Source: an uncultured Candidatus Sumerlaeota bacterium
Lineage (GTDB): Bacteria; CAYMEV01
Direction: 5' to 3'
NCBI GenBank assembly: GCA_964389675.1
Contig: CAYMEV010000017.1
Span: forward strand, 1-64,000
DNA: 64,000 nt
The notes beneath the pieces were generated by a model, which saw only the letters and a list, made by a program, of their open reading frames with translations, was not told where the DNA came from and did not search any database. The position numbers and the translations under genes are program-made. This document shows, piece after piece, positions 15,129 to 49,395 of this stretch (the stretch's first letter is position 1; every line of letters begins with the position of its first letter).

Positions 15129-15157
15129 AGGGAAAATGGCATTGATTCATTTTCCCT
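15129..15157. terminator. Stem-loop between the convergent ompA-like gene and mvhA
   Basis: AGGGAAAATG-N9-CATTTTCCCT inverted repeat. Confidence 0.55.
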
Positions 15158-15162
15158 GATTT

Positions 15163-16620
15163 TCATATCTTTAAAAGCATGCTTTTATTATGGTCATATA
15201 TGTTTATCCGGGGAAGCCTGGATTCACCTATTGAATGAGAAGCGCATGCAAAACAGGGATCATAGGCCCTGAATGCCATCTCAACCATATTCATGACTGC
15301 AGGGTTTATATTACCTTTTGATATAAGGTTCATGGCAGCCCTTTTAACGCTCAGGGCAATTGGAGCATAATTGTTCGTTGTAGCCACAACAAGGTTCACC
15401 TTTTTTATCAGGCCATTATTATCAAGCTTATAATGGTGGAACAATGTGCCTCTTGCAGCTTCTACTATACCCACTCCTTCACCAGGTTTTCCCGGCATAT
15501 TCCTTATATCCGGCCCGGTAATGTCCGGGTCGTTTACGAGTTCAAGGCCCCTCTCTGTTACATACAGAAGTTCTATCAGCCTGGCCCAGTGAAATGCAAG
15601 TGTATGGTGGACCGGTTTTTTCCCAAAGAAGGAGTAGAACCTGTCATATTCCTTTGATGCTTCAACTGTCCTGATGCCTGAGCTTGTATTTAGCCTTGCA
15701 AGGGGGCCTACCCTGTAGAGTGAAGTGCCTTTACCGTCATTGAACCCTCTCCAGCCCATGCTCTTTATATAAGTAGGCTTAACATAGCTGTTCTGCAATG
15801 GTTTTTCTTCAATATTTTCAAGGTATTCCTGCGGTTCAAACTCAGCAATTTTTACACCTTCTATATCTGAAATCCTTACTTTTCCATCATAAAAATTCAG
15901 ATATCCATCTTCATCCACAAGGCCCATATCGTTTGTAGTCAGAAGAAATGCATCGCTCTTGATTAAATCGAGGTAATCTTTGTTTTGCAGTACTATATCA
16001 TTGAATAGTACAAGGCTTTTTAATGCAAACTGGAAACAGCTGTTGAGCATCATTTCAATTTCCTGCCTTTCCGCTTCCAGAAGTGATTTGGTAACACCCC
16101 CTGGCAGCCCGGCGACAGGATGAGTAGCCTTGCCCCCTATTATCTCCGTCAGTTTCTGGCCATAAGCCCTGTGCTTAATGACATCTTTTGCTATATCAAC
16201 ACCGGCCTTTTCTATCACTCCAAATATATTCCTCTTTTCAGGGGGTGCATCCGGCCCAACGACAAAATCGGGCCCGCCAAGGAAATAAAAATGCAGTATA
16301 TGGTCATAGATGATATAACCGCAATACATAAGCTCCCTGATCTTTTTTGCAGTTGATGTCGCCTCAACATTAAAAGCCATGTCAAGTGTCTTTACAGATG
16401 CCATGTGGTGAGCAACCGGACAGACCCCGCATATCCTGCTTGTTAGCTGAGGCATCAGCTCTGCCCTCCTGCCCTCGCAGAACCTTTCAAATCCCCTTAA
16501 TTCGGGTATAATCAGATAGGCATCCTGTACCTCATCTTTTTCATTCAGGAATATATCAATTCTTCCATGGCCCTCAAGCCTTGTAATAGGGTCAATCGTT
16601 ATCTTTTTCATTCTTTTCAT
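15163..16620 (-). CDS. mvhA: [NiFe] hydrogenase large subunit, Mvh-type (group 3)
   Basis: TRLEGHG, RGFE, RICGVC (L1) and RAYDPCFACASH (L2) plus a C-terminal extension. Start placed at ATG 16620 after GGAGGGAGGT, not 16671. Confidence 0.9.
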   Translation of the reverse strand: MKRMKKITIDPITRLEGHGRIDIFLNEKDEVQDAYLIIPELRGFERFCEGRRAELMPQLTSRICGVCPVAHHMASVKTLDMAFNVEATSTAKKIRELMYCGYIIYDHILHFYFLGGPDFVVGPDAPPEKRNIFGVIEKAGVDIAKDVIKHRAYGQKLTEIIGGKATHPVAGLPGGVTKSLLEAERQEIEMMLNSCFQFALKSLVLFNDIVLQNKDYLDLIKSDAFLLTTNDMGLVDEDGYLNFYDGKVRISDIEGVKIAEFEPQEYLENIEEKPLQNSYVKPTYIKSMGWRGFNDGKGTSLYRVGPLARLNTSSGIRTVEASKEYDRFYSFFGKKPVHHTLAFHWARLIELLYVTERGLELVNDPDITGPDIRNMPGKPGEGVGIVEAARGTLFHHYKLDNNGLIKKVNLVVATTNNYAPIALSVKRAAMNLISKGNINPAVMNMVEMAFRAYDPCFACASHSIGESRLPRINIYDHNKSMLLKI

Positions 16621-17587
16621 ACCTCCCTCCCAGAATAGAAGAAGCCAGGCTGTACATATAGAAGGTGCCAATAGGGTCTCTTATCTTGTCAATTATCTTG
16701 TTTACCTCTTCTTCTGACGCATTTTCTTCATTTTCAAGCATTAAAATTGATGTAAGTGCTGATATCATCTTGCTTCCCGCATCTTTAATATTAGGTGCAG
16801 GCCCCATGCACCCTGTGCAGGGGAAATTGCCGTTTATGCATCTTGAACCGCACCCTGCACGTGTTACAGGCCCCATGCAAATAAGACCCTGTTCAAGAAA
16901 GCATTTTTCCCTGTCAGGAGTGACATGAAGAAGGTCTGTGATTCCCGGCATCCTTTTTTCAGTAACCGGGTTTCTTTCGCATACATCACACAGAGTCTTA
17001 TCCGGCGCGAGGACTGAGCCTTTAGCAGGAAGCTTTCCTTCAAATATCGCATCAAAAGCCTCCACAATCAGTTCAGGCGGAGGAGGGCAACCAGGCAGGT
17101 AATAATCAACATCAACAACCTTATTAAGGGGCTTTACCCTGTTGTGGAATTTCGGAAGGGTTATCTCACCCTCATTGACCTTAGTTAATGTTTGCGGAAC
17201 AAGCTTATCAGGGTTTTTGGTGGAAGGGCTTGAAAGATAAATCCTGTCAAAGACCTCATCTCTTGATGCAAGGTTTGCCAGGCCCGGGATACAGCCTTCA
17301 TGGGCACAGCTTCCAAAAGCGATCATTATCTTTGTCTTCTTCCTGAATAAATGCGCTAATTCCTCCTGTTCATCAGTCCTTACAGAACCGTTGAATAAAA
17401 ATATATCAAAGTAGTTGTCAGGCTTCTTTCTAATATCTTCATATTTTGAGTCCATGGCTACAGGCCAGAATTCTATATCTACTTTTTTAATTACCTCAAG
17501 AACAGTTTCATTAATATCAAGAACAGCTATCTCGCAGCCTCCGCAAGATGCTGCCCAGTAAAAACCTGCTTTCAGCTTCTTATCCAT
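16592..17587 (-). CDS. mvhG: [NiFe] hydrogenase small subunit, Mvh-type
   Basis: ASCGGC, FGSCA, PGCPP, LCDVC, CFLEQG.ICMGP.T..GC..RC....PC.GC.GP. Confidence 0.9.
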   Translation of the reverse strand: MDKKLKAGFYWAASCGGCEIAVLDINETVLEVIKKVDIEFWPVAMDSKYEDIRKKPDNYFDIFLFNGSVRTDEQEELAHLFRKKTKIMIAFGSCAHEGCIPGLANLASRDEVFDRIYLSSPSTKNPDKLVPQTLTKVNEGEITLPKFHNRVKPLNKVVDVDYYLPGCPPPPELIVEAFDAIFEGKLPAKGSVLAPDKTLCDVCERNPVTEKRMPGITDLLHVTPDREKCFLEQGLICMGPVTRAGCGSRCINGNFPCTGCMGPAPNIKDAGSKMISALTSILMLENEENASEEEVNKIIDKIRDPIGTFYMYSLASSILGGRYEKNEKDND

Positions 17588-17599
17588 ATCATACTCCTT

Positions 17600-19267
17600 C
17601 TACACTATGAGGCCGGGATCTTTCGGCTTCCTCTGTTTTTCTTTAACTGACTTAGGTATATAATCAGGCAGGAGTATCGGGCTGATCTTGCTGACTGGTA
17701 CCTGCAGCTCAGCAACCTCTGTCTCATATTTATCAATATGAGAAAGTGTTAATTTGCCAATCCTGGCTTTTTTGGCATAATCTGAACTGTATATGCCGGC
17801 CCTTCTTCCAAATACATTAATATCCAGCTGGGAATTCCCCATAAGCCTGTTCCTTCCATGAACACCGCCTGATGCTTCTCCAGCCACATAAAGCCCGGGG
17901 ATATTTGTTTCACACCTGTCATTAATAGCAATACCGCCATTCTGATAATGAAGTGTGGGATATACAAGTATAGGCTCTTTTGTCATATCTATCCCGAACC
18001 TTTTGAACTGCCTGTGCATAGCGGGAAGATTCTTTTTGATTGTGCCTTCTCCGTTAATAGCCTCTATAATAGGCGTATCAAGCCATACACCCAGCCTTCC
18101 TGTTGGAGTCCTAATTCCAAGCGCTCTTTCCTGGCATTCCCTTATGAATGAAGCGGATTCGACATCCCTGGGTTCCAGGGGGAATACGAAAAGCTCGCCT
18201 TCTTTATTTACAGGCTGTCCTCCCATACCCCTAATCTTCTCAGTGCAGAGGAAACCCACTATCTGCTCCGGATATACTGCACCTGTAGGGTGGTACTGGA
18301 CAGAATCCATGTAAAGAAGCTTAGCCCCGGCCCTATATGCTATTACCAGGCCATCTGCAGTAGCACCATAATGGTTGGTTGTTGCAAAATCCTTTATATG
18401 AAGCCTCCCATAACCTCCTGTTGCAATTACTGTGCTTTTTGCCTTAATAATATGATAATCCTTGTTCTCAAGATGGTATATGACAGCACCTGCACATTTG
18501 CCTTCATCATCGAGAATAATCTCAACTGCAGGTGAATATTCGATCAGCTTTATCTTATCAGGCCTGTTTAAGACCTCATCCCGAAGAACGGAAATAATAG
18601 CCGCACCTGTATAATCCCTTGCAGAATGCATCCTTGGCCTGCATGTGCCTCCGCCGGGCTTTACTGTAAGGCTGCCTTCCTTGTCTTTGTCAAACATGAC
18701 CCCCATGTTTACAAGCCAGTCAATTACATCAGGGCCGTCCAGAACAAGTGCCTTTACAAGCTCGGGGATATTGTCAAAATGGCCCCCTCCTATAACATCA
18801 AGGTAATGCAGCATTGGAGAATCAAAGTCTTTTGTCGCTGCCTGTATACCCCCCTGAGCCATAACGGAGTTTGAATCCCCAAGCCTCAGCTTGGTAAGGA
18901 GAATAACATTGGCTCCGTTTTCAGCAGCCATTAATGAAGCTGCACATCCTGCACTTCCGCCTCCAATAACAAGGACATCTGTCTCATAATCCGGCTGGGC
19001 AAGATCGAATGCGGTTGAGGATATTCTTGAATAGCTTTCCAGGACATCCACCACTTTCGTGGTCAGCTTTTCATCCTTATTTACCCCGACTCTCAGTGTT
19101 TTTCTTGCATCATCCTGATAGTCCGGGTGAAATTTTGACAAGACTTCCTCTCTTTCTTCAGCAGACATGTCAGGGAAAATCTTTGCTCCCTCTCTCTGCA
19201 GTCTTATCCTCTTAGGCCTTGTCAGTTCAAGCTTTTTTATAGATTCTTTCATTGATTCTGGATACAT
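17600..19267 (-). CDS. Soluble fumarate reductase/succinate dehydrogenase/L-aspartate oxidase-family flavoprotein
   Basis: VIGGGSAG, SNSVMAQGG, ATGGYG, QYHPTG, EKIRG, PRD, HYQNGG, HGRNRLMGNS. Confidence 0.85.
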   Translation of the reverse strand: MYPESMKESIKKLELTRPKRIRLQREGAKIFPDMSAEEREEVLSKFHPDYQDDARKTLRVGVNKDEKLTTKVVDVLESYSRISSTAFDLAQPDYETDVLVIGGGSAGCAASLMAAENGANVILLTKLRLGDSNSVMAQGGIQAATKDFDSPMLHYLDVIGGGHFDNIPELVKALVLDGPDVIDWLVNMGVMFDKDKEGSLTVKPGGGTCRPRMHSARDYTGAAIISVLRDEVLNRPDKIKLIEYSPAVEIILDDEGKCAGAVIYHLENKDYHIIKAKSTVIATGGYGRLHIKDFATTNHYGATADGLVIAYRAGAKLLYMDSVQYHPTGAVYPEQIVGFLCTEKIRGMGGQPVNKEGELFVFPLEPRDVESASFIRECQERALGIRTPTGRLGVWLDTPIIEAINGEGTIKKNLPAMHRQFKRFGIDMTKEPILVYPTLHYQNGGIAINDRCETNIPGLYVAGEASGGVHGRNRLMGNSQLDINVFGRRAGIYSSDYAKKARIGKLTLSHIDKYETEVAELQVPVSKISPILLPDYIPKSVKEKQRKPKDPGLIV

Positions 19268-19276
19268 ATCTGCCTC

Positions 19277-19954
19277 CTATTTGAGTTTAATCTCACGTTT
19301 ATAGTATTTTTCACTAAGAGATTTCTTATCAAGAGCCATAAGCTCGTTAATCTCTTTGTCAAATTTCCCCTGCCTGATTTCCTCTAAACGTTTCTGCAGC
19401 TGCTTTGATCTCGGAGCAAGGTACCTTCCATATAGCCTCCTTGCCATTATAGCAGCATTATACTGCACAATCTCTGCAGGACATCTGAGAGCGCATAATC
19501 CACATCTTATACAGTCAAAGGACAGGTCCGCAGCAAGTGCTATATCTCCTCTTTCAAGTGCATTAACATAATCCATGACCTGAATATCCTGAGGACATGC
19601 TTTTGTACATGTATTACAGGACACACATCTGAATAATGACGGGTAATACTCCTCAAATGTCCCTACGGAAGGTTCCAGTTCATTAATATCGTATATTGCC
19701 TTTTCCGCAGGCACAAAGGGGATCTGTGCAATATACATACCGTTTTCAACTACTGTCTGGCATGCAAGGCCGGTATATATCCTGTAATCCTTCTCTTTCC
19801 TGTAAACTGTTGCACACGCACCGCAGAACCCTTCCCTGCACCCGACCCCCCTCTTGAAAACGAAGCCGGAATATTCCATAGCACCTACAATAGTTAAGCC
19901 CTCAGGAACATCATAGGTTTCTCCCATTATATGAACCTTAACCATTTTCAGCAT
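19277..19954 (-). CDS. FrdB/SdhB-like iron-sulfur protein ([2Fe-2S] + 2x[4Fe-4S])
   Basis: GCREGFCGAC...LAC; CVSCNTCTKAC and CIRCGLCALRC. Confidence 0.85.
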   Translation of the reverse strand: MLKMVKVHIMGETYDVPEGLTIVGAMEYSGFVFKRGVGCREGFCGACATVYRKEKDYRIYTGLACQTVVENGMYIAQIPFVPAEKAIYDINELEPSVGTFEEYYPSLFRCVSCNTCTKACPQDIQVMDYVNALERGDIALAADLSFDCIRCGLCALRCPAEIVQYNAAIMARRLYGRYLAPRSKQLQKRLEEIRQGKFDKEINELMALDKKSLSEKYYKREIKLK

Positions 19955-19960
19955 AATATG

Positions 19961-20380
19961 TTACCTCCTTGTTAAAGGTTTGGGAGCTGGTCCCAAATAT
20001 TTTATATTAGAAATAAATTCATTCATTGTTTTAGCAAATTTATTGCCCTCCGAAGCAGATATCCATTCAAGCCTTAGTCTTTCCTCCTCAAATCCAAGGG
20101 ATTTAATAATCTTCTTTAGAAGAGCTACCCTGCGCAGAGTCTTATAATTGCCATTCTGATAATGACAGTCGCCAGGGTGGCACCCGCCTATAAAAACACC
20201 GTCTGCCCCCTTTTCAAAGGCTCTCAGGATATGCTGAGGGTCTATTCTTGATGAACACATGACTCTGATTGATACGCCGTTGGGCCTGTATTCCATCCTT
20301 GAAGTACCTGCAAGGTCAGCACCGGCATAGGTGCACCATTTACATAAAAAACAGACAATTTTAGGCTCAAAGACTTTCAT
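19961..20380 (-). CDS. mvhD: Hydrogenase delta subunit ([2Fe-2S] Hdr adaptor)
   Basis: FLCKWCTYAGADLAG, RVMCS.R, GCHPGDCHY..GN, WISASE. Confidence 0.93.
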   Translation of the reverse strand: MKVFEPKIVCFLCKWCTYAGADLAGTSRMEYRPNGVSIRVMCSSRIDPQHILRAFEKGADGVFIGGCHPGDCHYQNGNYKTLRRVALLKKIIKSLGFEEERLRLEWISASEGNKFAKTMNEFISNIKYLGPAPKPLTRR

Positions 20381-20383
20381 ATA

Positions 20384-22339
20384 CTATACTCCTTTCAGTA
20401 TGGAATCTACCATATTGAATATCTGATTATCAGTAAGATTTCTCTGTTGGGATGCTCCTGTAGGGCAAGCTGCGATACAGCTCCCGCAGCCTTCACAAAG
20501 AACATCTTCCACTCTGGCTATCTTTTCCGTTGCATCGATAACTCTTGCGGAATAGGGACAGACAGAGACGCATATGCCGCATCCACAGCAGTAGTCCTCG
20601 ATAACCATTGCAATGTCAGGATCATGATGAAGGTATTCGGAACTAAGCATGGCCAGGGCTTTAGATGCTGCGGCAGAACCCTGTGCTACAGACTCGGGTA
20701 TGTCTTTCGGCCCTTGTCCTGTACCGCAAAGGAAAAAGCCCGCCTTCATGGTCTCAACCGGCTTAAGTTTCGGATGTGCTTCGCTGAGGAACCCAATGTG
20801 GTTGGTAGACAATTTAAGTTTCTTAATAAGCTCATGAGAGCCTTCAGAGGGCACCATAGACATAGCCAGGACAACCATATCTGCCTGTATTTCGACCTTC
20901 TGGCCAGTCAGAGTGTCAACACCCCAGATGGTCAGTTTATCCCCCTCCTGGAAAAGCTTTGCTACTTTACCCCTGATATAAGTTACTCTTTCATGCTCTA
21001 TTGTTTCCTGGATAAATTCCTCATACCCCTTGCCCCCTGATCTAATATCAATATAAAATATAACCGAATTACCGTGATGCACTTTATGCTTGTACAGCTT
21101 GGCATGCTTCGCGGTATACATACAGCATATCTTTGAACAGTGAGAATTATGCCTCTCCGGGTCCCTTGAACCTGAACACTGGATAAAAACTATATTCTCA
21201 GGAACCTTGCCGTCAGATGGCCTTCTGACCTCCCCTCCGGTTGGCCCGGTTGCTGACAGTATCCTTTCGAACATCAGTCCGTCGATAACGTCAGGATACT
21301 TCCCATAACCGTATTCTGCCATCTCCTCGACCGGATAAAGGTCATATCCTGTTGCAATAACAACAACCCCTACCTCTTCTTCGATCATGCTGTCATATAC
21401 ATCATAATCAATTGCCTTAGGTTCGCATACCTCCCTGCATTTTCCGCATGCTATGGGCGAAAGCCCCAGGCAGTTGTCAATATCAAGGGTAAATGTTGCA
21501 GGAATGGACTGAGCAAAGGGTATGTATATGGCTTTCCGGAATGCCAGGCCTCTGTCATACTCGCTGGGTACCCACACAGGGCATACTTCGCTGCAGTCTC
21601 CGCATATAGTGCATAGATCAGGGTTTACATAGGGTGCTTTTCTTTTTATTTTAACCTTAAAATTCCCGACTATACCTTCTATATCAGTAACTTCACTGTT
21701 ATTGTATATTGTTATATTAGGGTGTTTGGACACACTGACCATTTTTGGTGTCAGAATGCACTGAGAGCAGTCAAGGGTAGGAAATGTCTCAGATAATTGA
21801 GCCATATGGCCCCCTATTGACGGTGTTTTTTCGATTAAAATTACCTTTTGGCCTGCATCAGCAAGATCAAGGGCCGCCTGTATGCCAGCAACGCCGCCCC
21901 CTATCACACATGCCTTCCTGGTGACAGGCACCTTCACAGGTTCAAGGGATTCGTTAAGTTTTACCTTTTCAATAATGCTCTTTATTATCTTTACAGCTTT
22001 TTCTGTAGCCTCGTTAATGTCAGGATGAACCCATGAGCACTGTTCTCTAATATTTGCGATCTCAAGCTGATATGGGTTAAGGCCCCCCTCCTTGGCAGCA
22101 AGCCGAAATGTTGATTCATGAAGGGTAGGAGAACAGCATGCTACTACTACCTTATCCAGTTTATTCTCCTTGATTGATTTTGATATAAGGTTCTGTCCGG
22201 GGTCTGAACACATAAATACATAATCCTCTGCCATGGCGACCCCTTCATAACCACTTATCTTTTTTACTACCTCTTTGATATTTACTGTCTCTGCAATATT
22301 TACTCCGCAGTGACATACGAATACTCCTACTCTCTTCAT
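20384..22339 (-). CDS. hdrA: Heterodisulfide reductase subunit A
   Basis: RVGVFVCHCG.NIA, NIREQCSWVH, GGGVAG, KTPSIGG, TFPTLDC, QCSGSRD, CSKICCM, C-terminal ferredoxin motifs. Confidence 0.95.
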   Translation of the reverse strand: MKRVGVFVCHCGVNIAETVNIKEVVKKISGYEGVAMAEDYVFMCSDPGQNLISKSIKENKLDKVVVACCSPTLHESTFRLAAKEGGLNPYQLEIANIREQCSWVHPDINEATEKAVKIIKSIIEKVKLNESLEPVKVPVTRKACVIGGGVAGIQAALDLADAGQKVILIEKTPSIGGHMAQLSETFPTLDCSQCILTPKMVSVSKHPNITIYNNSEVTDIEGIVGNFKVKIKRKAPYVNPDLCTICGDCSEVCPVWVPSEYDRGLAFRKAIYIPFAQSIPATFTLDIDNCLGLSPIACGKCREVCEPKAIDYDVYDSMIEEEVGVVVIATGYDLYPVEEMAEYGYGKYPDVIDGLMFERILSATGPTGGEVRRPSDGKVPENIVFIQCSGSRDPERHNSHCSKICCMYTAKHAKLYKHKVHHGNSVIFYIDIRSGGKGYEEFIQETIEHERVTYIRGKVAKLFQEGDKLTIWGVDTLTGQKVEIQADMVVLAMSMVPSEGSHELIKKLKLSTNHIGFLSEAHPKLKPVETMKAGFFLCGTGQGPKDIPESVAQGSAAASKALAMLSSEYLHHDPDIAMVIEDYCCGCGICVSVCPYSARVIDATEKIARVEDVLCEGCGSCIAACPTGASQQRNLTDNQIFNMVDSILKGV

Positions 22340-23229
22340 ACCAATTCTCCTAGTATTTTCTTTTCTCTAAGAATGGGAAGTATATCAAAATAATGATATT
22401 TGTTCCAGCTGCTGAACCATCTGGTCTTTAGTGCGAGATAAAGAAGCTCAGTAAAATAGAATACAGGCATGCCCTCAAAATCAGTAAAAGCCTCCTGTGT
22501 CTCCCTCTGCATCTGATCAAGGTTATATGCACACAAAGGGCATGAGGTTATCAAAGCTTCACAGCCCGCTCTTTTTGCTGACATCAGTATTTTATAGGTT
22601 CTGTTCTGGACCATATCAGGTGATGATACCACCTGATATGAACCACAGCACTCAAGTTTATAGGGGAAATCCACAGGTTTGCAGCCAATGGCGTCAAGCA
22701 GCCTTTCAAGGATATCAGGATCTTCAAATCTGCTGTCAAGACTGTATTCCTTAGGCCTTACCAGCATACAGCCATAATATGATCCTACCTTGATTCCATT
22801 CAGCGGATTCTTAACAGCATCCTTCACCTTTTTATAACCTATGTATCTGTCAAGGACCTCCAATAAATGCAAAACCTCAACATTGCCCTGATACTGGTGA
22901 TCCTCCATATACATGAAATCATTAATCTTTTTCATGTTTTTTTCTGATGCTTTTATGAAGCTGTTAGCCCTTTTTAATGTATTATAGCACATGGAACACA
23001 TGGTAACCAGCTTGTCCGCACCCTCTGCCTCCACTCTGAGCAGATTCCTGAATGCTCCCATCTGAAGCATGAGATTATCCTGAGTCATAGAGTACACTGT
23101 GCCACAGCAATTCCATCTATCAAGCTCTTCAAGTTCTATTCCCAGTTCATTCATTGCTAGAATGGAGCTTTCTTCAAAATTGATTGCTGAATTTTTCTGG
23201 GCACATCCTGGATAATACTTTATTTTCAT
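22336..23229 (-). CDS. hdrB: Heterodisulfide reductase subunit B
   Basis: Two CCG domains: YYPGC...NCCG...CSMC and YYGC...ECCG...CPLC. Confidence 0.92.
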   Translation of the reverse strand: MKIKYYPGCAQKNSAINFEESSILAMNELGIELEELDRWNCCGTVYSMTQDNLMLQMGAFRNLLRVEAEGADKLVTMCSMCYNTLKRANSFIKASEKNMKKINDFMYMEDHQYQGNVEVLHLLEVLDRYIGYKKVKDAVKNPLNGIKVGSYYGCMLVRPKEYSLDSRFEDPDILERLLDAIGCKPVDFPYKLECCGSYQVVSSPDMVQNRTYKILMSAKRAGCEALITSCPLCAYNLDQMQRETQEAFTDFEGMPVFYFTELLYLALKTRWFSSWNKYHYFDILPILREKKILGELV

Positions 23230-23240
23230 AAATATTCTCC

Positions 23241-23678
23241 TTATAATCCTGCAAATTTTCTGAAAGCACTTACCATGGCAATTGATGGAAGCCTTTTCCT
23301 TACCTTTGGGTCCACATCCCTGACATTAAAAACTATTTCCCTGTTTCTCAGCTTAATTTCCCTGTATGCCTCCATTACAGATGCAACATCTATCCCTTTA
23401 GGGCATCTTGAACTGCATTGCAGGCAGGACGCGCAGACCCATATTGTATCACTTTCCAGTATGCTGGCAAAATCCCCGGTCTGAGACATCTTTATGACCA
23501 TTGTCGGTGTAATATCCATAAATTCAAGTACTGGGCATCCGGAAGAACAGTTACCGCACTGATAGCACTTAAATACATCCTGACCTGATATTTTTGCGAC
23601 AAGCTTGAACATAGTAGTGTCCTCAGCATTATGCTCCAGCTTCAAGAGGTCTTTCTTCTTATTGATTGTATCAGTCAT
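23241..23678 (-). CDS. hdrC: Heterodisulfide reductase subunit C
   Basis: CYQCGNCSSGCP; IWVCASCLQCSSRCP. Confidence 0.92.
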   Translation of the reverse strand: MTDTINKKKDLLKLEHNAEDTTMFKLVAKISGQDVFKCYQCGNCSSGCPVLEFMDITPTMVIKMSQTGDFASILESDTIWVCASCLQCSSRCPKGIDVASVMEAYREIKLRNREIVFNVRDVDPKVRKRLPSIAMVSAFRKFAGL

Positions 23679-24224
23679 CTATTTCTCCTTTTCCGGAAGA
23701 TAGTTAAAGCCCAAATAAAAGGCTTTTTTATTTAATTCCACAAACTTTGAAGGAACTGTTTTTTCAATTGCCTTCTCCACATTTTCCGAGCTGAGTATCC
23801 TGGTCTGGCCGATCATAAAGCCGATCATAACCATATTTGCCACAATTTTTTTCCCGATACTTTCTGCAAGTCTTGTTGAGGGTATCTTATACTGGTATAT
23901 ATTCTTATTCAGGGTAACAGGCACAACCAGGTCTTCATCATAGAATATCCTGCCATACTCGACCATATCCCTGCAATATTTATCATAGCCCTCCTGGCTC
24001 ATTGCAAGTAGTATATCCGGATTGTCGACAAGAGGATATTTAATCTCAGAATCGTGTATGGTTACCTGTGTAGAACACGCCCCGCCCCTTGCTTCCGGCC
24101 CATAACTCTGGATCATGGAAGCAAAATGTTTTTCAAATATTGTGGCAGATGTACCCAATACATAGCCTGACAGTATTACTCCCTGGCCCCCAAACCCTGA
24201 AATCTTAATCTTCCATTCTTTCAT
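23679..24224 (-). CDS. korC: 2-oxoacid:ferredoxin oxidoreductase gamma subunit
   Basis: SGFGGQGVIL, QSYGPEARGG, NMVMIG. Confidence 0.88.
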   Translation of the reverse strand: MKEWKIKISGFGGQGVILSGYVLGTSATIFEKHFASMIQSYGPEARGGACSTQVTIHDSEIKYPLVDNPDILLAMSQEGYDKYCRDMVEYGRIFYDEDLVVPVTLNKNIYQYKIPSTRLAESIGKKIVANMVMIGFMIGQTRILSSENVEKAIEKTVPSKFVELNKKAFYLGFNYLPEKEK

Positions 24225-25092
24225 TGCTTCCCTCCGTAGATTGTTTCCTTTTCATTGCTTCAGCATGCCTGACATCCTGATATGCCTGCTTTAGCCTGTC
24301 ATAATAGCTTAATCTTTCATTCCTGACAAAAACACCAACCTTCAAAGGATCATCATATCCTATATTACAGTCCTTCGGGTCTACATTATGCGCTATTACA
24401 GAACGGGCATGAAACCTTTCAAGAAGGTCAAGGCCGGTTCCTCCCATATTCTTTTTTGCATAGACGGTAGCACAGGGAGTAATTATCTCTACAAAGCTGA
24501 AGCCTCTCCATAGAAGAGCTTCACTGATCGTATCTATAAGCCTTCTGACATGAAGGGTAGTCCATCTTGCTACAAATGATGCACCTGAAGAGGCTGCCAG
24601 ATAGGACAGGTTAAAGGGTTCCTCATAATTTCCATAGGGAGCTGTTGTGCTGTAGGCAGTTAGAGGGGTAGTTGGAGCATTCTGTCCCCCTGTCATTCCA
24701 TATATAAAGTTATTTACACATATGACTGTCATGTTGATATTCCTTCTTGCTGCATGTATCAGGTGATTACCGCCTATTGCAAATAAATCGCCGTCCCCTG
24801 AAAACACCACAACCTTCAGGTTCCTGTTTGCCAGGGCGATACCTGTGGCAAAAGGTATGGCACGTCCATGGGTAGTATGAAATGAGTCAAGCTTTATATA
24901 GCCTGCTACACGTCCTGTACAGCCGATTCCTGAAACAACTGCAAATTTTTCAGGGGGTATCTGTGATTTTTCGATTGCTTTTGCAAAGGTTGTTACATTG
25001 ATTCCAAGACCGCATCCAGAACACCATATATGCGGCATCCTGTCCATCCTCAACAGTTTCTCTACTGGATGATTTTCTAAAAGGGTACTCAT
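24205..25092 (-). CDS. korB: 2-oxoacid:ferredoxin oxidoreductase beta subunit (TPP-binding)
   Basis: WCSGCG, SGIGC, HTTHGRA, GDGD...GGNH, NN.IYGMTGGQ. Confidence 0.9.
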   Translation of the reverse strand: MSTLLENHPVEKLLRMDRMPHIWCSGCGLGINVTTFAKAIEKSQIPPEKFAVVSGIGCTGRVAGYIKLDSFHTTHGRAIPFATGIALANRNLKVVVFSGDGDLFAIGGNHLIHAARRNINMTVICVNNFIYGMTGGQNAPTTPLTAYSTTAPYGNYEEPFNLSYLAASSGASFVARWTTLHVRRLIDTISEALLWRGFSFVEIITPCATVYAKKNMGGTGLDLLERFHARSVIAHNVDPKDCNIGYDDPLKVGVFVRNERLSYYDRLKQAYQDVRHAEAMKRKQSTEGSNERMED

Positions 25093-26252
25093 TTTGCAAC
25101 CTCCAAAATAGCATTAACTATATCATTTATTTTATGGAATCCTCCACCTGGATGTGTCAGCGATTTTACCCTGCAGCATCCTGAATACCTTTCGACCTCT
25201 CTGACCATCTGTCCCATATTAAGTTCAGCAACCACAAAACCTTTTACTCTCCCTGCAAGCTCTTTTATCTTGTCATCACAGAAGGGCCATGCTGTAATCA
25301 GCCTGAGCAGGCCTACCTTTACACCTTTTTTCTTTGCCAGCTCTATGCCCGGGACTACTGTCCTTGCAGTAATACCATATGAGACAACAACAACATCGCA
25401 GTCATCCAGGTCAATCTCCTCAAGAAGTATTATATCATCCTTATTCTTCTGTATCTTGTCTATTATCCTGGTAACATTCTCAATATGAGCTTTTTCAGTC
25501 ATATCAGGATAACCTTTTTCATTATGCGTAAGCCCTGTAGAATGAATGGCATAACCGTCACCAGCCTTTGCAAAATCAGGGACAAGACTCTTCCCGGACT
25601 TATAGGGCAGGTATTTGTCATGAGTCTTTTTTGTATAGGTTCTATCGATAATCTTTATTTCTTCAGCAGGAGGTATAATAACCCTCTCCGTCATATGGCC
25701 CACAATAGCATCAGTAAGGATTATGACAGGCAGCCTGTATTTTTCAGCATAATTGAAGGCTGTTATTGTAAGATCGAAAAATTCCTGAGGTGATTTCGGA
25801 CAAAGGCCAATTACCCCGACATCCCCGTGAGTACCCCATTTTGCCTGCATCATGTCAGATTGTCCCCAGTGTGTCGGGAGCCCGGTTGATGGTGAACCCC
25901 TCTGAACATTGACCACTACACATGGAGCTTCCATCATATACCCCAGGCCGAGATTCTCATTCATTAGAGAAAACCCGGGCCCGGAAGTTGCTGTCATACT
26001 CTTGACTCCTGTCCATGAAGCACCCAGAATGGCGGCCATTGACCCTATCTCATCCTCCATCTGGATAAAAGCCCCATCCTCAAATATCGGCAGCCTGTAG
26101 GACAGCCTTTCCGCTATCTCTGATGCAGGAGTGATCGGATACCCTGCAAAGAATCTGCAGCCAGCAATCAAGGCAGCTTCTGCGCAGGCAATATCACCCT
26201 GCATGAAGTATATTCCTCTTAAGTACCTATCATTATCTTTAAGCAATGTCAT
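25089..26252 (-). CDS. korA: 2-oxoacid:ferredoxin oxidoreductase alpha subunit (2-oxoglutarate-type)
   Basis: GYPITPASE, QMEDEIG, TATSGPGFSLM, QRGSPSTGLPT, ELNMGQ. Confidence 0.9.
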   Translation of the reverse strand: MTLLKDNDRYLRGIYFMQGDIACAEAALIAGCRFFAGYPITPASEIAERLSYRLPIFEDGAFIQMEDEIGSMAAILGASWTGVKSMTATSGPGFSLMNENLGLGYMMEAPCVVVNVQRGSPSTGLPTHWGQSDMMQAKWGTHGDVGVIGLCPKSPQEFFDLTITAFNYAEKYRLPVIILTDAIVGHMTERVIIPPAEEIKIIDRTYTKKTHDKYLPYKSGKSLVPDFAKAGDGYAIHSTGLTHNEKGYPDMTEKAHIENVTRIIDKIQKNKDDIILLEEIDLDDCDVVVVSYGITARTVVPGIELAKKKGVKVGLLRLITAWPFCDDKIKELAGRVKGFVVAELNMGQMVREVERYSGCCRVKSLTHPGGGFHKINDIVNAILEVAK

Positions 26253-26512
26253 TTTTCCTCCTTTTTAACAATATAGATTGCATAATCCGGGCAGATGAGC
26301 TCACACAAACCGCACCCGACACAAAGCTCCCTGTTCTTTACATACGGAGGATGATGTCCTTTTTCATTGAATTTTTCTGATACATCCAATACATCTCGCG
26401 GGCAGTAGTTAATGCAGAAATTGCAGCCCTTGCATTTATCCTCAATTATCACTATTTCACATTCCTGTACAGCTTGAGGCTTTTTTCCGAAAGGGGATTT
26501 ATAAATCTTCAT
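26249..26512 (-). CDS. korD: 2-oxoacid:ferredoxin oxidoreductase delta subunit (2x[4Fe-4S])
   Basis: CKGCNFCINYCP; CVGCGLCELICPDYAI; GGGAGGA RBS. Confidence 0.88.
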   Translation of the reverse strand: MKIYKSPFGKKPQAVQECEIVIIEDKCKGCNFCINYCPRDVLDVSEKFNEKGHHPPYVKNRELCVGCGLCELICPDYAIYIVKKEEK

Positions 26513-26635
26513 ATACTTTATCCTCCCTCAATAATTATTTGCAAAATTTGTATCCGAAATTTAATGATTGCTTTTGGAATTTGATTCTGAAAGAGATATG
26601 ACCGCCTGGAAGAAATCCGCTTTTATGACTCTTTG

Positions 26636-26653
26636 TCTTGATAAAAATCAAGA
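26636..26653. promoter_or_regulatory. FNR/CRP-family-like operator palindrome upstream of the kor-hdr-mvh operon
   Basis: TCTTGAT-AAAA-ATCAAGA contains the exact TTGAT-N4-ATCAA consensus. Confidence 0.5.
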
Positions 26654-26753
26654 TATATTGTATTCCTTATTTTGGTATTAATAACAGTTGGCACCTAGTA
26701 TAATCATTATTTAAAATCAATCAAATATAAAATTGCCAAAAAATTAAAAATTT

Positions 26754-33500: not shown

Positions 33501-36500
33501 ATGATATCGGAATTTATTCCCGGAGATATGGATCCTATGTCAGACAGGCATGGCCTGATACCAGAATTTATTGCAGACAAATATAAACAGGGTAAATTTA
33601 AGGGACTTTTCTATTGTTATACAATGTTCATCGATATCTCCGGTTTTACAGCAATGACCCAAAGCCTTATGCAGTCCGGAAAAGAAGGGGCAGAGGTACT
33701 TTCATCCATTATCAACAGCCTTTTTACGCCTGCAATAGAGACCATCTACAGATATGAAGGTTTTATATCTTCCTTTGCCGGAGATGCATTTACTTCCATC
33801 TTTATCAGGAATAAGCCAGAATATGCACTTAAAGCAGCCTTTGAAATCAAGAAGCAGTTTATCAGAAATGGCAGTATTGTTACAAAACTGGGAGAATTCA
33901 GATTAGAAGCAAAGATAGGCCTCTCATGCGGAAAAGCGGAGTACAGCATAATTGACCCTGGCATTCAGCATACCTATTATTTCAGGGGAGAAGCTATTGA
34001 TGGATGCGCAGAATCTGAGCATAAGGCCCGGAGATCGGAAATAATTGCTGATAAAAGGTTTATAGGCAGGATCTCAGCTGAGATTGAAAAGAGAGCGCTT
34101 TCTGCCAATTATTTTGAGATTTATCCTTCAGATATAGATATCTCTCATAGGAAGTCAAATAATCGATTGCTGAATATGCCTTCCATAGAAAAGAAATTTG
34201 TAAACAGCAGTCTGCTTGATATTAAGTATAAAGGGGAATTCAGGGAGATAACATCGGTTTTTATCAGCTTCTCTGATGAAAAGACCTTCGAGGATGGTAT
34301 CATGCAGGTAATAAGGAATGCCCATAAGTATGGCGGATATTTCAATCGTGTGGACTTCGGGGATAAGGGCGGTACCATGCTGATAATATTTGGAGCGCCA
34401 TCCGGGATAGAGAAGCTCTACACAAGGACAGCCGATTTTGCCCTTTGCCTTAAAGATATTCATGGATTCCGGTTCAGGGCTGGTATTTCAACAGGAATAG
34501 CATTTGCAGGCTATATAGGTTCTGACAGGAGAAGTGAGTATACTGCAATAGGGAATGTAGTCAATATATCCGCCCGCCTGATGATGAAGGCCGGCTGGTA
34601 TGAAATCCTTGCATGCCAGGATATCAGAAACAGGCTGTACCATCATTACAACTTTTCAGCGGGTGGGTTAAGGAAAATAAAGGGTTTTAGGGCTCCCGCA
34701 AGGATTTATGCCCTGGAATCAAGGAAGGGCTACAACAGGAGAATAACATATAAGAGCGGCTATATACAGAGAACAGACGAAACAGAGAAATTAAAAAATC
34801 TAATCAGCCCTATTTTCAATGGCAGAAGTGCTGGACTGGTTTATGTTAACGGGCCTGCAGGCATAGGTAAATCCCGCTTTATTGATGAGTTCATGATCAG
34901 CAATGATAAATGCGCTTTTTTTTACATGCCCTGTGATGAGATACTCAGAAAATCATTTAATCCCTTCATACATTTCTTAAGGCAATATTTCAGACAGTCA
35001 GAGTCCAAAACAAAATTTCAGAATGCAGAAAGGTTTTCTGAATTGTACAGGAGGATGCTTTCAGAGATAAACGATGAATACTATAAAAAGGAGCTTGCAC
35101 GCACTGAACCATTTATTGCAGGGCTGACCGGGCTCAGCCTGGATGATGCCATATTCAGCGATATGGATCCGAAGATCGTTTATGAAAACACCATTTTTGC
35201 ATTAAAGGACTTCTTTTTAGCTCAATGCCTTAAGAAACCCTCTGTACTGGTAATTGACGATGGACATTCAATAGACACAGACAGCCTTAACCTGCTGAAT
35301 ACAATCCTGAGAAATATGGAAAGTTCCGCCATGGCTGTAATAATGCTCTGCCGTCTCAGGGATGATGGAAGCAGCTATGATTTTTTCAGTGACAGCCCCG
35401 GTAATTCATTAGAGCTTAAGCCCTTCGGAAAAAAGAACATGGACAGGCTTCTTGAGGATCTGCTTGGAACTGGCGATCTGCCTGCTCTAACAAAGGAATT
35501 TATTTGGGAAAAGAGCGCCGGTAATCCGTTCTTCATAGAACAGATCACTCTTTACATGTCAGAAAATAATCTATTCGACAGTAAATTTAATATTGCCGGT
35601 ACTGAATATGCAGTACCTTCAGAAATAGGCCAGATATTAACCGCAAGGATTGACAGATTATCCACAAAGCTTAAAGAAGCTGTTAAGGCCGCTTCTGTAC
35701 TGGGCAGGGAATTTGCGGTAAAAGTGCTGAGAAGCCTTCTATTTAAGATAAAAATCTCTGATAATGATGCTGACTTTGAGAAGCAGATTAAGGCAGGTGA
35801 AAAAGAACAGATCTGGGAAAACATCTCGGAATTGATCTGCATATTCAGGCATGCCCTTATAAGGGATACTGCATATGCCATGCAGCTTAAGGAAAGGCTC
35901 AGGCAGATACACAATATGGCTGGAAATGCTATTGAGGAGATCTATTCTGATAATCTTGAAGCAAACTATGAGGAACTGGCAGAGCATTTCGACAGGGCAG
36001 AGAACATTGATAAAGCTGTTTGCTACCTGGAAAAAGCAGGCAGAAAAGCAATGCAGCACTACAAGAATGAAAAGGCGCTGAATTATTTTGACAGGCTTAT
36101 ACACTATCTCTGGCTTGAAAAAAACAGGGAAAAAGTAATACAAATCATGCTTTTGCAGTCAAACCTCCATTATTTGACGGGCAGATGGGATAAGGCTTTG
36201 AATACCGGAAAGAGCAGCCTTAAGCTTGCTGATAAATTAGGTAAAGGCATAATATCAGTTAACTGCATGCTCAATCTGGCAGGCCATTATATTGCAATGC
36301 ATAAGCTTAAAGAGGCTGAAAATATAGCAAAAAAGTCCCTATCACTTTCAGAAAAGACTGGTTATCAAGAAGGAATAATAAAAGCCCTGTATGAAATAGG
36401 CCGACTGAGCATTGCAAAAGGTGATTATGACAAGGCAAAAGAGCTTTTATTGAAATTTCACTCCAAAAGCTTAATGAAGGGAAATGCAAAGGATATCTGT

Positions 36501-47329: not shown

Positions 47330-47337
47330 TGAGAAAC

Positions 47338-47367
47338 CAGGTGCAGGGGGTTTTCCTCCTGTACCTG
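47338..47367 (+). other. Intergenic stem-loop after dnaK without a U-tract (mRNA stabilisation or partial termination)
   Basis: CAGGTGCAGG...CCTGTACCTG inverted repeat. Confidence 0.5.
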
Positions 47368-47386
47368 AAATAAAAGGAGATGATTC

Positions 47387-47818
47387 ATGGCTGACTGGAA
47401 AAACCTTTCCAAACTATTGAGTCTGCATGATAGAATATCCTGGCTCTTCAGCCAGGAAAACCTGGATGCAATGTCAAAACTTAACAGCATCGAAAACACC
47501 ATTTCTACACCGGTAGATATAGCTGAAACTCCGGACCAGATATACATATATATGGAAGTACCCGGCATTGAGATTGAAAATGTAAGTGTATATTACAAAG
47601 AAGGGCAGATCATAATTAAGGGCTCAAAGGACTCGCCTCAATTATCAGATGATCAAAAGGCCATACGTATTGAAAGATTCTTCGGGAATATAGAAAGGCG
47701 TTTTTCAATCAAGCAGCCTGTGGATGAAAACAGCATTAAAGCTTCGCTGAATGACGGCATTCTGACAATAACCATGGACAAGAAGACAACAAAAAGAAGT
47801 ATTGAGATAACGGGATAA
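47387..47818 (+). CDS. Hsp20/alpha-crystallin small heat shock protein
   Basis: PVDI.ET, EVPG, ER.FG...R, A...DGILTI. Confidence 0.9.
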   Translation: MADWKNLSKLLSLHDRISWLFSQENLDAMSKLNSIENTISTPVDIAETPDQIYIYMEVPGIEIENVSVYYKEGQIIIKGSKDSPQLSDDQKAIRIERFFGNIERRFSIKQPVDENSIKASLNDGILTITMDKKTTKRSIEITG

Positions 47819-47830
47819 AGGGGTCATATA

Positions 47831-48964: not shown

Positions 48965-48975
48965 TATGGAGGAAT

Positions 48976-49395
48976 TTGATGGCTAAAAGAGGTTTATACT
49001 CAATCTCAGTTGTTTCAAGCCTGCTTGATATTCATCCTCAAACCATCAGGTTATATGAGAGAAAGGGGCTTATCAAGCCAACCCGCACTGAAGGGAATAC
49101 ACGGCTTTTCAGTGATGAGGACCTTGAAAAGATCAAGATGATCCTCAGGCTTTCAAACGACCTTGGTGTTAATCTGGCAGGAATTGAGGTAATTTTCAAT
49201 ATGAGGGAAAAGATTGTGCAGATGGAGCACGAAATGATCAGGCTTTTAAAAAAGATTACAGAGGACTACCAGAAAACACTTCAGGAAAAGGATGTCGAAA
49301 ATGCACTGGTGCCGCTCTCAGAAGCACAGATGAAAATAAGAAGGTTTGCAGAGATTGATATGTTCAATAAAATTGACCAGGACAACAGTGAATAA
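48976..49395 (+). CDS. hspR: MerR-family heat-shock repressor HspR
   Basis: YSISVV...IHPQTIRLYER.GL..P.RT.GNTRL.S, LGVNLAG. Confidence 0.9.
   Translation: MMAKRGLYSISVVSSLLDIHPQTIRLYERKGLIKPTRTEGNTRLFSDEDLEKIKMILRLSNDLGVNLAGIEVIFNMREKIVQMEHEMIRLLKKITEDYQKTLQEKDVENALVPLSEAQMKIRRFAEIDMFNKIDQDNSE

Follow-up and report, generated by a model that had tools for sequence, protein, structure and literature searches.

Bacterial gene clusters that join heterodisulfide reductase (Hdr) to a soluble fumarate reductase have been described before, and we compare with them here a twelve-gene cluster from an uncultured Candidatus (Ca.) Sumerlaeota bacterium. The cluster lies in a stretch of 64,000 nucleotides (the window; positions 1 to 64,000 of contig CAYMEV010000017.1, assembly GCA_964389675.1), which is the segment C17:1-64000 of a genome of 3.57 Mb in 58 contigs, 93.8% complete. 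It contains hdr genes, genes for an Mvh-type [NiFe] hydrogenase, genes for a 2-oxoacid:ferredoxin oxidoreductase (Kor), and a pair encoding an iron-sulfur (FeS) subunit and a flavoprotein. As described by Williams et al. (2021; PMC8542988), the Ca. Celaenobacter genes for a thiol:fumarate reductase (TFR) and a 2-oxoglutarate oxidoreductase (OGOR) form a cluster together with those for fumarate hydratase and succinyl-CoA synthetase, for Hdr and for a group 3c Mvh hydrogenase; ATP citrate lyase is encoded elsewhere in that genome, and H2-driven autotrophy by way of a tricarboxylic acid cycle run in reverse (rTCA cycle) was inferred. In tubeworm symbionts, korABCD and tfrAB are reported to be interspersed with flxABCD-hdrABC, with either a thiol shuttle or a direct bifurcating complex proposed (Rubin-Blum et al. 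2019; PMC6315080), and the Hdr-Flx/kor cluster is reported as co-expressed, tfrAB being the exception in differential expression (Mitchell et al. 2024; PMC11636981). In the cultured succinate producer Pseudoclostridium thermosuccinogenes, a 'succinate operon' is described that encodes fumarate hydratase along with Flx-Hdr and a fumarate reductase (Koendjbiharie et al. 2020; PMC7282089). The idea of Hdr-linked bifurcation returns in a 2026 survey, which also describes the five-subunit fumarate reductase FrdABCDE of Hydrogenobacter thermophilus, which depends on reduced nicotinamide adenine dinucleotide (NADH) (PMC13147460). Marine Cloacimonadota reportedly have a [NiFe] hydrogenase and Hdr downstream of a methylmalonyl-CoA-pathway cluster (10.1101/2025.11.11.687785), and Cloacimonadota 'Clade B' is reported to have MvhADG-HdrABC (PMC12590816). 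Both the arrangement and the bifurcation hypothesis are already published as genomic inference. The first-pass annotation of the window, which knew of no characterised system with this gene set and had itself named an earlier description as a ground for refutation, needs correcting on this point: the same set is in print in PMC8542988 and a flx version in PMC6315080.

We read the 12 genes as encoding one cytoplasmic redox machine, in which an Mvh-type [NiFe] hydrogenase, HdrABC-MvhD and an anchor-less fumarate reductase would act through an integrated bifurcating mechanism, and give this reading a probability of roughly 55%. By sequence comparison the cluster is orthologous to that of Ca. Celaenobacter. 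The Ca. Celaenobacter antarcticus metagenome-assembled genome of PMC8542988 (locus L004) has the same gene set and core order (korABC-hdrCB-hdrA/mvhD-FeS-flavoprotein-mvhGA), and its flavoprotein is 71% identical to that of the window. In contrast to the window, Celaenobacter loci carry an extra hdrA::mvhD fusion as well as hycI after mvhA, while the hycI of our genome is on another contig; and unlike Ca. Celaenobacter, for which ATP citrate lyase is reported, our genome belongs to a different GTDB phylum and yielded no Citrate_synt domain. Compared by description (PMC6315080, PMC11636981), the tubeworm symbionts and Thioflavicoccus mobilis likewise interleave the genes of an Hdr module with those of a four-subunit Kor and of a soluble fumarate reductase of the AB type. 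Their donor is NADH, entering through Flx; that of the window would be H2, entering through MvhAG. The P. thermosuccinogenes operon, also compared by description, resembles the window in having an Hdr-linked soluble fumarate reductase by fumarase, with succinate formation proposed to be coupled to ferredoxin reduction; it differs in its donor, NADH, and Kor is not mentioned in the description of that operon (PMC7282089).

Layout and borders of the cluster

The 12 genes are consecutive minus-strand open reading frames (ORFs) that span positions 15163-26512 of the window, identified from the ORF list with Pfam and NCBIfam. In gene order and with their borders, the features are as follows (aa, amino acids; FAD, flavin adenine dinucleotide; TPP, thiamine pyrophosphate):

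26513..26753, minus strand: upstream intergenic region, a 241-bp AT-rich gap with candidate promoter and ribosome-binding site for korD
26249..26512, minus strand: korD, delta subunit with 2x[4Fe-4S], 87 aa; Fer4_7/Fer4, OGOR_delta 64 bits (cut-off 125)
25089..26252, minus strand: korA, 2-oxoacid:acceptor oxidoreductase alpha subunit, 387 aa; POR_N 236 bits and PFOR_II
24205..25092, minus strand: korB, TPP-binding beta subunit, 295 aa; TPP_enzyme_C, NF007207 242 bits (below 364)
23679..24224, minus strand: korC, gamma subunit, 181 aa; POR 120 bits, NF006323 185 bits (below 235)
23241..23678, minus strand: hdrC, 2x[4Fe-4S] subunit, 145 aa; Fer4_8/Fer4_17, TIGR03290 61 bits (below cut-off)
22336..23229, minus strand: hdrB, subunit with two CCG domains, 297 aa; CCG x2 (Pfam)
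20384..22339, minus strand: hdrA, presumed bifurcating FAD/FeS subunit, 651 aa; 702 bits against 5odc_A
19961..20380, minus strand: mvhD, [2Fe-2S] adaptor, 139 aa; FlpD 183 bits, full length
19277..19954, minus strand: putative FeS subunit of soluble fumarate reductase with [2Fe-2S] and 2x[4Fe-4S], 225 aa; Fer2 and Fer4, SdhB-like
17600..19267, minus strand: putative flavoprotein subunit of soluble fumarate reductase, 555 aa; FAD_binding_2 250 bits over residues 97-479
16592..17587, minus strand: mvhG, [NiFe] hydrogenase small subunit, 331 aa; Oxidored_q6, VhuG 194 bits (below 450)
15163..16611 (listed from 16671), minus strand: mvhA, [NiFe] hydrogenase large subunit; NiFeSe_Hases
15129..15157, no strand assigned: inverted repeat with an 11-pair hairpin, a possible terminator between the convergent mvhA and OmpA-family genes

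The genes thus run korD-korA-korB-korC-hdrC-hdrB-hdrA-mvhD-FeS-flavoprotein-mvhG-mvhA, and the gaps along this order from korD to mvhG measure -4, -4, -20, 0, 11, -4, 3, 6, 9 and 12 bp, the gap of 0 bp being that between korC and hdrC. The first-pass annotation had reported 12 same-strand genes in this order, with overlaps or gaps of at most 12 bp, and had placed a fumarate-reductase-like pair inside the mvh genes; the ORF list, Pfam and NCBIfam confirm the former at the coordinates above, and the ORF order confirms the latter, the FeS/flavoprotein pair sitting between mvhD and mvhG. With its listed TTG start, mvhA overlaps mvhG by 80 bp. Since its match to the VhuA profile begins at residue 21 of the listed ORF, the Met there (base 16611) is probably the start, and the overlap is therefore about 20 bp.

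The upstream gap holds a promoter-like TTGATT-16-TATACT at 26724-26697, a consensus match only, and GGAGG 8 nt before the korD ATG is the likely ribosome-binding site. At the other end, the border is the convergent OmpA-family gene, and the hairpin in front of it is likewise just a consensus match; the minus strand shows no clear T-run there. Promoter-like sites (49, against 32.9 +/- 5.7 expected) and terminator-like sites (13, against 11.9) are uninformative on internal transcription signals. The arrangement is not a chance juxtaposition, because the same order recurs in Cloacimonadota-labelled loci and the core in most of 80 related loci; the genes are a putative transcription unit. The G+C content of the operon (window 16001-26000) is 0.41-0.45, a few points above that of its flanks (0.36-0.40).

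The Hdr/Mvh module, the FeS/flavoprotein pair and their predicted contact

All six MvhADG-HdrABC subunits are encoded together on one strand, as in the six-subunit methanogen complex (5ODC), with full-length alignments of 702, 123-142 and 361 bits for HdrA, HdrB and MvhA, respectively. HdrA residues 3-648 align to residues 5-650 of 5odc_A, the full length of the bifurcating HdrA in that solved complex, and the protein scores 808 bits on the HdrA2 model (below 1100). The translation of hdrC carries two CxxCxxCxxxCP motifs. In HdrB both CCG Cys motifs are complete: among 34 sequences, C9, C41, C42, C78, C81 and C154 are invariant, and C194, C195, C230 and C233 are conserved at 90% or more. The range of 123-142 bits refers to solved HdrB chains, with 141.6 bits against 7bkb_B, and HdrB scores 149 bits on the MFR SdhE model versus 164 bits on the HdrB model. 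MvhA contains the metal-ligand motifs RICGVC and DPCFAC; its top NCBIfam match is VhuA (395 bits, below 800), and it scores 361 bits against MvhA 5odc_F and 364 bits against the NiFe large subunit 7t2r_D. The VhuA and 5odc_F matches, with mvhD and mvhG as neighbours, come closest to the group 3c placement that the first-pass annotation had expected. The hdr and mvh genes use Cys rather than selenocysteine and can be read without any in-frame TGA. The window also encodes SelB, the elongation factor specific for selenocysteine (43450-45327, plus strand), just upstream of a dnaK-hsp20-dnaJ-merR-type heat-shock cluster (45419-49395).

Unlike the methanogen complex, this one has a bacterial host, no ComA was found alongside it, and SdhB-like and SdhA-like subunits are encoded between mvhD and mvhG. 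The first-pass annotation had suggested a search for coenzyme M biosynthesis. ComA (PF02679, coenzyme M synthesis) was not found in the 93.8% complete genome, with the control matched in M. jannaschii and coenzyme B synthesis not searched, and DsrC was not found in the same genome. Because the methanogen equivalog models score below cut-off and neither ComA nor DsrC was found, the heterodisulfide of coenzymes M and B (CoM-S-S-CoB) is unlikely to be the natural high-potential acceptor of this Mvh/Hdr-type machine. Fumarate is the most likely terminal acceptor instead.

The FeS subunit has a 2Fe-2S motif CX4CX2C...C (Cys 39/44/47/65) and two 4Fe-4S motifs (Cys 110/113/116/120 and 148/151/154/158), and all these cluster Cys are invariant in 35 sequences (34 of 70 homologues used). 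Pfam gave no CCG domain match in it. Against the TfrB model NF004898 it scores 40.7 bits (cut-off 385), and only over positions 19-109 of 488; the model is covered piecewise by three proteins of the operon, the FeS subunit (19-109), HdrC (110-240) and HdrB (262-471). The C-terminal half of the FeS subunit is weakly HdrC-like (29 bits against 8rvv_C).

The best PDB match of the flavoprotein is SdhA of Mycobacterium smegmatis Sdh1 (7d6v_A, 235 bits), among 53 distinct PDB sequences at E<=1e-20, and its best solved relatives are the flavoproteins of succinate dehydrogenase and fumarate reductase and L-aspartate oxidase. Its AlphaFold2 model (predicted local distance difference test (pLDDT) 71.8, predicted template-modelling score 0.77) has E. 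coli FrdA as first Foldseek match (template-modelling score 0.63). In alignments to SdhA chains, the HPTG His, the TE..R.GG segment, an Arg aligned with R-D, the H-Y..GG His and the NRL Arg are all present. Residues H326, T342, E343, R346, R367, R376, H440 and R474 are invariant in a 38-sequence alignment (37 of 79 homologous ORFs used), and this His/Thr/Glu/Arg set is what we take, from the family literature, to be the dicarboxylate substrate site. N133, invariant in the same 38 sequences, occupies the position of the His of the SdhA H-T-V motif, presumably the covalent (8-alpha-histidyl) FAD carrier of the membrane enzymes. An N-terminal extension of about 95 residues (1-95) is common to all 79 flavoprotein homologues, whose lengths are mostly 555-557 aa, and is modelled as helices 4-25 and 36-46 with a low-confidence stretch at 53-78.

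These sequence features place the pair, which has no membrane anchor and presumably holds its FAD non-covalently, in the fumarate reductase superfamily (FrdA/SdhA/NadB). The 12-gene cluster holds no membrane anchor gene and Asn133 stands at the covalent-FAD His position, which argues against a membrane-type quinol:fumarate reductase or succinate:quinone reductase. The comparison with TfrAB drawn in the first-pass annotation did not hold for the feature that defines TfrAB. Like TfrAB of Methanothermobacter, the pair is soluble and has no membrane anchor; unlike it, the flavoprotein has 95 extra residues at its N-terminus and its match ends about 120 positions short of the end of the TfrA model, and the FeS subunit is without the CCG half. 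The TfrA model NF004900 is the best NCBIfam match of the flavoprotein, at 336 bits (cut-off 718) over profile positions 6-426 of 546, and the NadB of the genome scores higher on it (415 bits). We rejected the pair as a true TfrAB on the TfrA and TfrB scores and on the FeS subunit; because the latter has no CCG thiol-oxidising half, the pair is not a thiol:fumarate reductase in the defining sense. The flavoprotein was likewise rejected as the NadB of this genome: it reaches 288 bits on TIGR00551 against a cut-off of 452.75, and the true NadB, on contig C7, scores 533 bits. A tblastn search of the genome found no further Frd/Sdh flavoprotein besides that of the operon and NadB.

Complex modelling of the FeS subunit had been proposed in the first-pass annotation, and its outcome is positive. 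We predicted a three-chain complex of HdrB, HdrC and, as the partner, the FeS subunit, each entered as a custom alignment, and obtained a score of 0.86 against 0.00 for the best of three controls. Of 80 solved complexes, 58 reach this mark, and so do 2 of 110 mismatched pairs; the three-chain job does not resemble that calibration. The runs share at least 96% of contacts, with a partner pLDDT of at least 82. On the FeS side the predicted interface involves residues 96-118, 127-137 and 159-160, around Cys110, Cys113 and Cys158; on the HdrB side it involves residues 8-9, 12-13, 38-43, 54-61 and 105-108, around Cys9, Cys41 and Cys42. The C-terminal tail of HdrC (119-145) contacts the FeS subunit in the model, and around the clusters the interface sets FeS 108-118 and 159-160 against HdrB 8-9 and 38-43, at the first CCG cluster of HdrB. 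The model thus favours direct docking of the FeS subunit on that cluster, and direct wiring over a thiol shuttle. A continuous wire is favoured because this predicted docking coincides with an FeS subunit that has no CCG half.

Related loci, Kor and the host genome

A scan of one genome per species returned 534 stretches with relatives of the flavoprotein, and the best 80 loci (63-92% identity) were used. They are labelled 'Eubacteriales/Clostridia' (22), Aminicenantes (19), Cloacimonadota (16), Delongbacteria (4), Neomarinimicrobiota (2), Spirochaetes (2), Bacteroidales (1) and Armatimonadota (1), with 13 unlabelled. The FeS gene is directly upstream of the flavoprotein gene in 71 of the 72 loci that have at least 700 bp upstream. 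At the 58 loci that reach 4 kb or more upstream, hdrA was found 52 times, mvhD 49 times and hdrB 46 times; with at least 9 kb (45 loci), hdrA is present in 42, hdrB in 40 and korA in 30, and all three occur together in 30. The first-pass annotation had suggested a synteny search, and besides these co-occurrences we found the same gene order in Cloacimonadota-labelled loci. The hydrogenase is less widespread, with mvhA in 14 of 61 informative loci, while an NAD(P)H-type pair of Fer4_22 and FAD/NAD-binding proteins takes the place of MvhAG in 28 of 80. Of the 80 loci, 16 have sucCD, 17 fumarase and 9 malic enzyme, and the loci where sucCD and fumarase flank the pair carry the labels of at least five phyla. 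That genes for fumarase and succinyl-CoA synthetase recur beside the pair supports fumarate/succinate as its probable substrate.

Three layouts can be told apart. Type I, that of the window, runs kor-hdrCBA-mvhD-FeS-flavoprotein-mvhGA, usually followed by hycI and often by sucCD-fumAB, and is found in Cloacimonadota-labelled loci. Type II, in Aminicenantes-type loci, runs hdr(C)B-korDABC-hdrA-mvhD-[Fer4_22][FAD/NAD]-FeS-flavoprotein and has no hydrogenase; with kor between hdrA and hdrBC, it resembles the symbiont clusters as described. Type III, under the labels Delongbacteria, Neomarinimicrobiota and Spirochaete, has an hdrA::mvhD fusion, hdrC-hdrB-FeS-flavoprotein and no kor, and is flanked by sucCD, fumAB and malic enzyme. 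Because these layouts differ in donor module and in Kor, the constant core, as judged from gene content, is Hdr plus the soluble reductase, and the donor module and Kor are interchangeable additions. Some loci depart further from these layouts: L004, L006 and L008 (Cloacimonadota labels) have a tandem HdrA, a 776-797-aa hdrA::mvhD fusion followed by separate hdrA and mvhD, and L017, L032 and L034 have an extra mvhD between the flavoprotein gene and mvhG.

The GTDB phylum of our genome holds two genomes, this one and a congener whose flavoprotein is 92% identical, and outside it the nearest relatives of the operon are Cloacimonadota-labelled, at about 70% identity. In a quick tree of 38 of the 80 flavoproteins, with the NadB of this genome as a very long outgroup, the window and locus L005 form their own branch, outside the Cloacimonadota-labelled rows and beside these and the Delongbacteria and Neomarinimicrobiota rows.

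The Kor encoded in the operon is a complete four-subunit enzyme, with alpha, a TPP-binding beta, gamma and a delta subunit with 2x[4Fe-4S]. KorA passes the generic alpha model NF006412 (538 bits, cut-off 411) and falls short of the 2-oxoglutarate synthase alpha model NF007206 (361 bits, below 579). A second korDABC set, at C12:91817-94641 (locus L085), outscores it against the 2-oxoglutarate models (KorB 333 versus 242 bits, KorA 417.6 versus 361) and may be the housekeeping OGOR. We take 2-oxoglutarate as a candidate substrate of the operon Kor, for which the linkage of sucCD and fumarase in related loci gives only indirect support.

Elsewhere in the genome, contig C22 carries a gene of the malate/lactate dehydrogenase family (MDH-like), sucCD and a two-subunit fumarase; the search for succinyl-CoA synthetase and fumarase that the first-pass annotation had recommended thus found both on the same contig. 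Malic enzyme is encoded on contig C25, and methylmalonyl-CoA mutase and two Rnf/Nqr-type loci are present. The hdrABC/mvhD set is the only one in the genome by tblastn, and the hycI protease gene is on contig C11. A second cytoplasmic [NiFe] hydrogenase, at C1:168577-172516 (locus L084), is of the sulfhydrogenase type, group-3b-like and NAD(P)-linked; its subunits (ShyB/HydB, HydG, ShyD, HydA-like) are all below equivalog cut-offs, and its beta and gamma subunits are 30% and 38% identical to the Fer4_22 and FAD/NAD proteins that replace MvhAG in Aminicenantes-type loci. The notion that the genome has no other CCG protein was rejected: an HdrD-like protein (Fer4_8 and two CCG domains, 395 aa), the only other one found, is encoded at C22:42972-44159 (L092:4972-6159, minus strand), next to NAD kinase and not near the operon.

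Together with the operon, these genes encode the reductive branch from oxaloacetate through malate, fumarate, succinate and succinyl-CoA to 2-oxoglutarate. The Citrate_synt domain (PF00285), which is expected in both citrate synthase and ATP citrate lyase and whose absence therefore bears on both enzymes, was not found in the 93.8% complete genome, with the control matched in 13 of 14 genomes. PF16114 (ATP citrate lyase) gave no match in the genome either, but its control matched 0 of 14 genomes and the blank carries no weight. Two LeuC-sized aconitase-family genes and one Iso_dh gene were found, one of each adjacent on contig C4, and are indistinguishable from leucine biosynthesis. Since no Citrate_synt domain was found, a full rTCA cycle is not supported in this genome. 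Of the rTCA setting proposed in the first-pass annotation, the branch stands, with the MDH-like enzyme, fumarase, the reductase, sucCD and Kor present, and the full cycle does not. The operon may plausibly supply 2-oxoglutarate, let fumarate reduction act as an energy-conserving electron sink (with Rnf) or serve a succinate/propionate pathway; under syntrophy, the reverse reaction is plausible as well.

Apart from these subjects, the window encodes a 1317-aa protein (33501-37454, plus strand) that resembles a STAND/MalT-type signalling protein: besides a weak match to adenylate/guanylate cyclase, it has an ATPase domain (AAA_16) and numerous TPR repeats.

Proposed mechanism, competing readings and significance

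What we observe directly is the gene content, order and close spacing, the cofactor motifs, the conserved dicarboxylate-site residues and the linkage to Hdr and TCA genes in other lineages. The FeS-HdrB contact is predicted by modelling, and we infer that electrons are bifurcated, which path they take, that Kor acts on 2-oxoglutarate and which way the machine runs in the cell. In the proposed machine, H2 would be oxidised at MvhA and its electrons passed through MvhG and MvhD to the FAD of HdrA, which would split the pair. The high-potential electron would travel from HdrC to HdrB, with the CCG clusters as a wire, and on through the FeS subunit to the non-covalent FAD of the flavoprotein, where fumarate would be reduced to succinate. 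The low-potential electron would reduce ferredoxin, or KorD directly, and reduced ferredoxin would drive the co-encoded Kor to make 2-oxoglutarate from succinyl-CoA and CO2. Per two H2, one fumarate would be reduced and one reduced ferredoxin formed, matching the 1:1 demand of the reductive TCA branch. The first-pass annotation had likewise ended the high-potential branch on fumarate and sent ferredoxin to Kor, and this part of its proposal is supported by synteny, by the dicarboxylate-site residues and by the predicted FeS-HdrB docking; its thiol-shuttle branch is the weaker one, as the FeS subunit is without CCG.

The direction of the machine is not fixed by sequence, and its reversal is the first alternative to weigh. 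Electrons from succinate and from ferredoxin reduced by Kor would then merge at HdrA (confurcation) and leave as H2, allowing succinate oxidation at low H2 in syntrophic propionate or glutamate oxidation. Flavin-based bifurcating complexes are, as is generally known, reversible in principle; a 1:1 stoichiometry of Kor-derived ferredoxin and succinate would fit as well; and the methylmalonyl-CoA mutase, sucCD, fumarase, malic enzyme and Rnf/Nqr genes, with no Citrate_synt found, suit a fermenter or syntroph better than an autotroph. Syntrophic propionate oxidation, with a 'missing' succinate dehydrogenase step, is moreover discussed for Cloacimonadota relatives (bioRxiv 10.1101/2025.11.11.687785). 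We nevertheless consider reversal unlikely. By our estimate from textbook potentials, about -500 mV and +30 mV average to about -235 mV, and H2 release would therefore need very low H2 or a strongly shifted fumarate/succinate ratio. The characterised Hdr-linked Mvh hydrogenases, those of methanogens, act by general knowledge in H2 uptake, and the related P. thermosuccinogenes operon is described as part of a succinate-producing pathway (PMC7282089).

A thiol/disulfide shuttle would separate the two halves of the machine: HdrABC-MvhADG would reduce a soluble or protein disulfide, as happens in methanogens or sulfate reducers, and the fumarate reductase would reoxidise the thiols, through a diffusible carrier and with no direct contact. 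Such a shuttle is among the models stated in PMC6315080 (Suppl. Note 3) and PMC8542988, HdrB keeps both complete CCG motifs, and the HdrD-like CCG protein on contig C22 could supply a thiol-oxidising site. That gene is not near the operon, however, and the FeS subunit, without CCG, matches only the N-terminal 2Fe-2S part of the TfrB model; with no ComA or DsrC found in the 93.8% complete genome and the FeS subunit predicted to sit on the first CCG cluster of HdrB (0.86, best control 0.00), we judge the shuttle improbable. Finally, the genes might be loosely co-located and share no mechanism, Kor working alone with free ferredoxin or on another 2-oxoacid, or the flavoprotein on another substrate. 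The Kor subunits stay below the 2-oxoglutarate cut-offs and are outscored by the second Kor set; 15 of the 45 loci with at least 9 kb upstream, about a third, have no kor; and the flavoprotein is below cut-off for every named family. On the other side, every junction is a gap of 0-12 bp or an overlap, sucCD and fumarase flank the pair across at least five phylum labels, the dicarboxylate-site residues are invariant, and the genome has a separate NadB. In Aminicenantes-type loci kor is inserted differently, between hdrB and hdrA, and this different interleaving argues for selection on the linkage. Loose co-location thus appears very unlikely.

Several observations weigh against the integrated bifurcating machine that we prefer. 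Every Hdr, Mvh, Tfr and OGOR equivalog model is below its curated cut-off, and only the generic 2-oxoacid alpha model passes. The flavoprotein reaches the cut-off of no named NCBIfam family, and its AlphaFold2 model is only moderate (pLDDT 71.8), so that model and Foldseek confirm the superfamily only. As HdrB keeps both complete CCG motifs, a disulfide substrate remains compatible with its sequence. A pass in complex prediction indicates likeness and not binding in the cell, and part of the docking confidence may be memory of solved structures, because HdrB-HdrC complexes have been solved and the FeS C-terminal half is weakly HdrC-like. The operon Kor may prefer a 2-oxoacid other than 2-oxoglutarate, given that the C12 set scores higher on the 2-oxoglutarate models, and kor is absent from Delongbacteria, Neomarinimicrobiota and Spirochaete-type loci, which makes Kor an accessory and not an obligatory part. 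Because no Citrate_synt domain was found here, the H2-driven autotrophic rTCA role published for Ca. Celaenobacter does not simply carry over to this genome. In the literature that a limited search returned on Hdr-linked fumarate reductase clusters, as far as those sources describe them, there is no purified enzyme of this kind.

A bolder form of the integrated machine, which we regard as doubtful, is one physical Mvh-Hdr-Frd(-Kor) assembly in which the non-cubane clusters of HdrB serve as a wire and not as a disulfide-reducing site. If this were true, both outputs of bifurcation would enter two enzymes of the reductive TCA branch with no free thiol or ferredoxin carriers. The assembly would be a bacterial counterpart of the methanogen Hdr-hydrogenase-formylmethanofuran dehydrogenase super-assembly, serving here quinone-free 'fumarate respiration' (with Rnf) and 2-oxoglutarate supply, not autotrophy.

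A real advance would come from biochemistry. What the window contributes beyond the published clusters is limited: a lineage, from a two-genome GTDB phylum, with an H2-driven, Kor-linked version; a 'TfrB' without its thiol-oxidising half, together with a predicted FeS-HdrB docking that favours direct wiring; and a genome context that points to a reductive branch or to succinate/propionate metabolism, not to a full rTCA cycle. Many anaerobes without quinones or a membrane-bound fumarate reductase still reduce fumarate or oxidise succinate, and the reverse TCA branch requires a very low-potential ferredoxin. If our reading is true, an Hdr complex in which fumarate reduction pays for ferredoxin reduction would account for the quinone-free interconversion of fumarate and succinate as well as for the ferredoxin supply. 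It would also represent a new class of flavin-based electron bifurcation, one whose high-potential acceptor is a carbon substrate.

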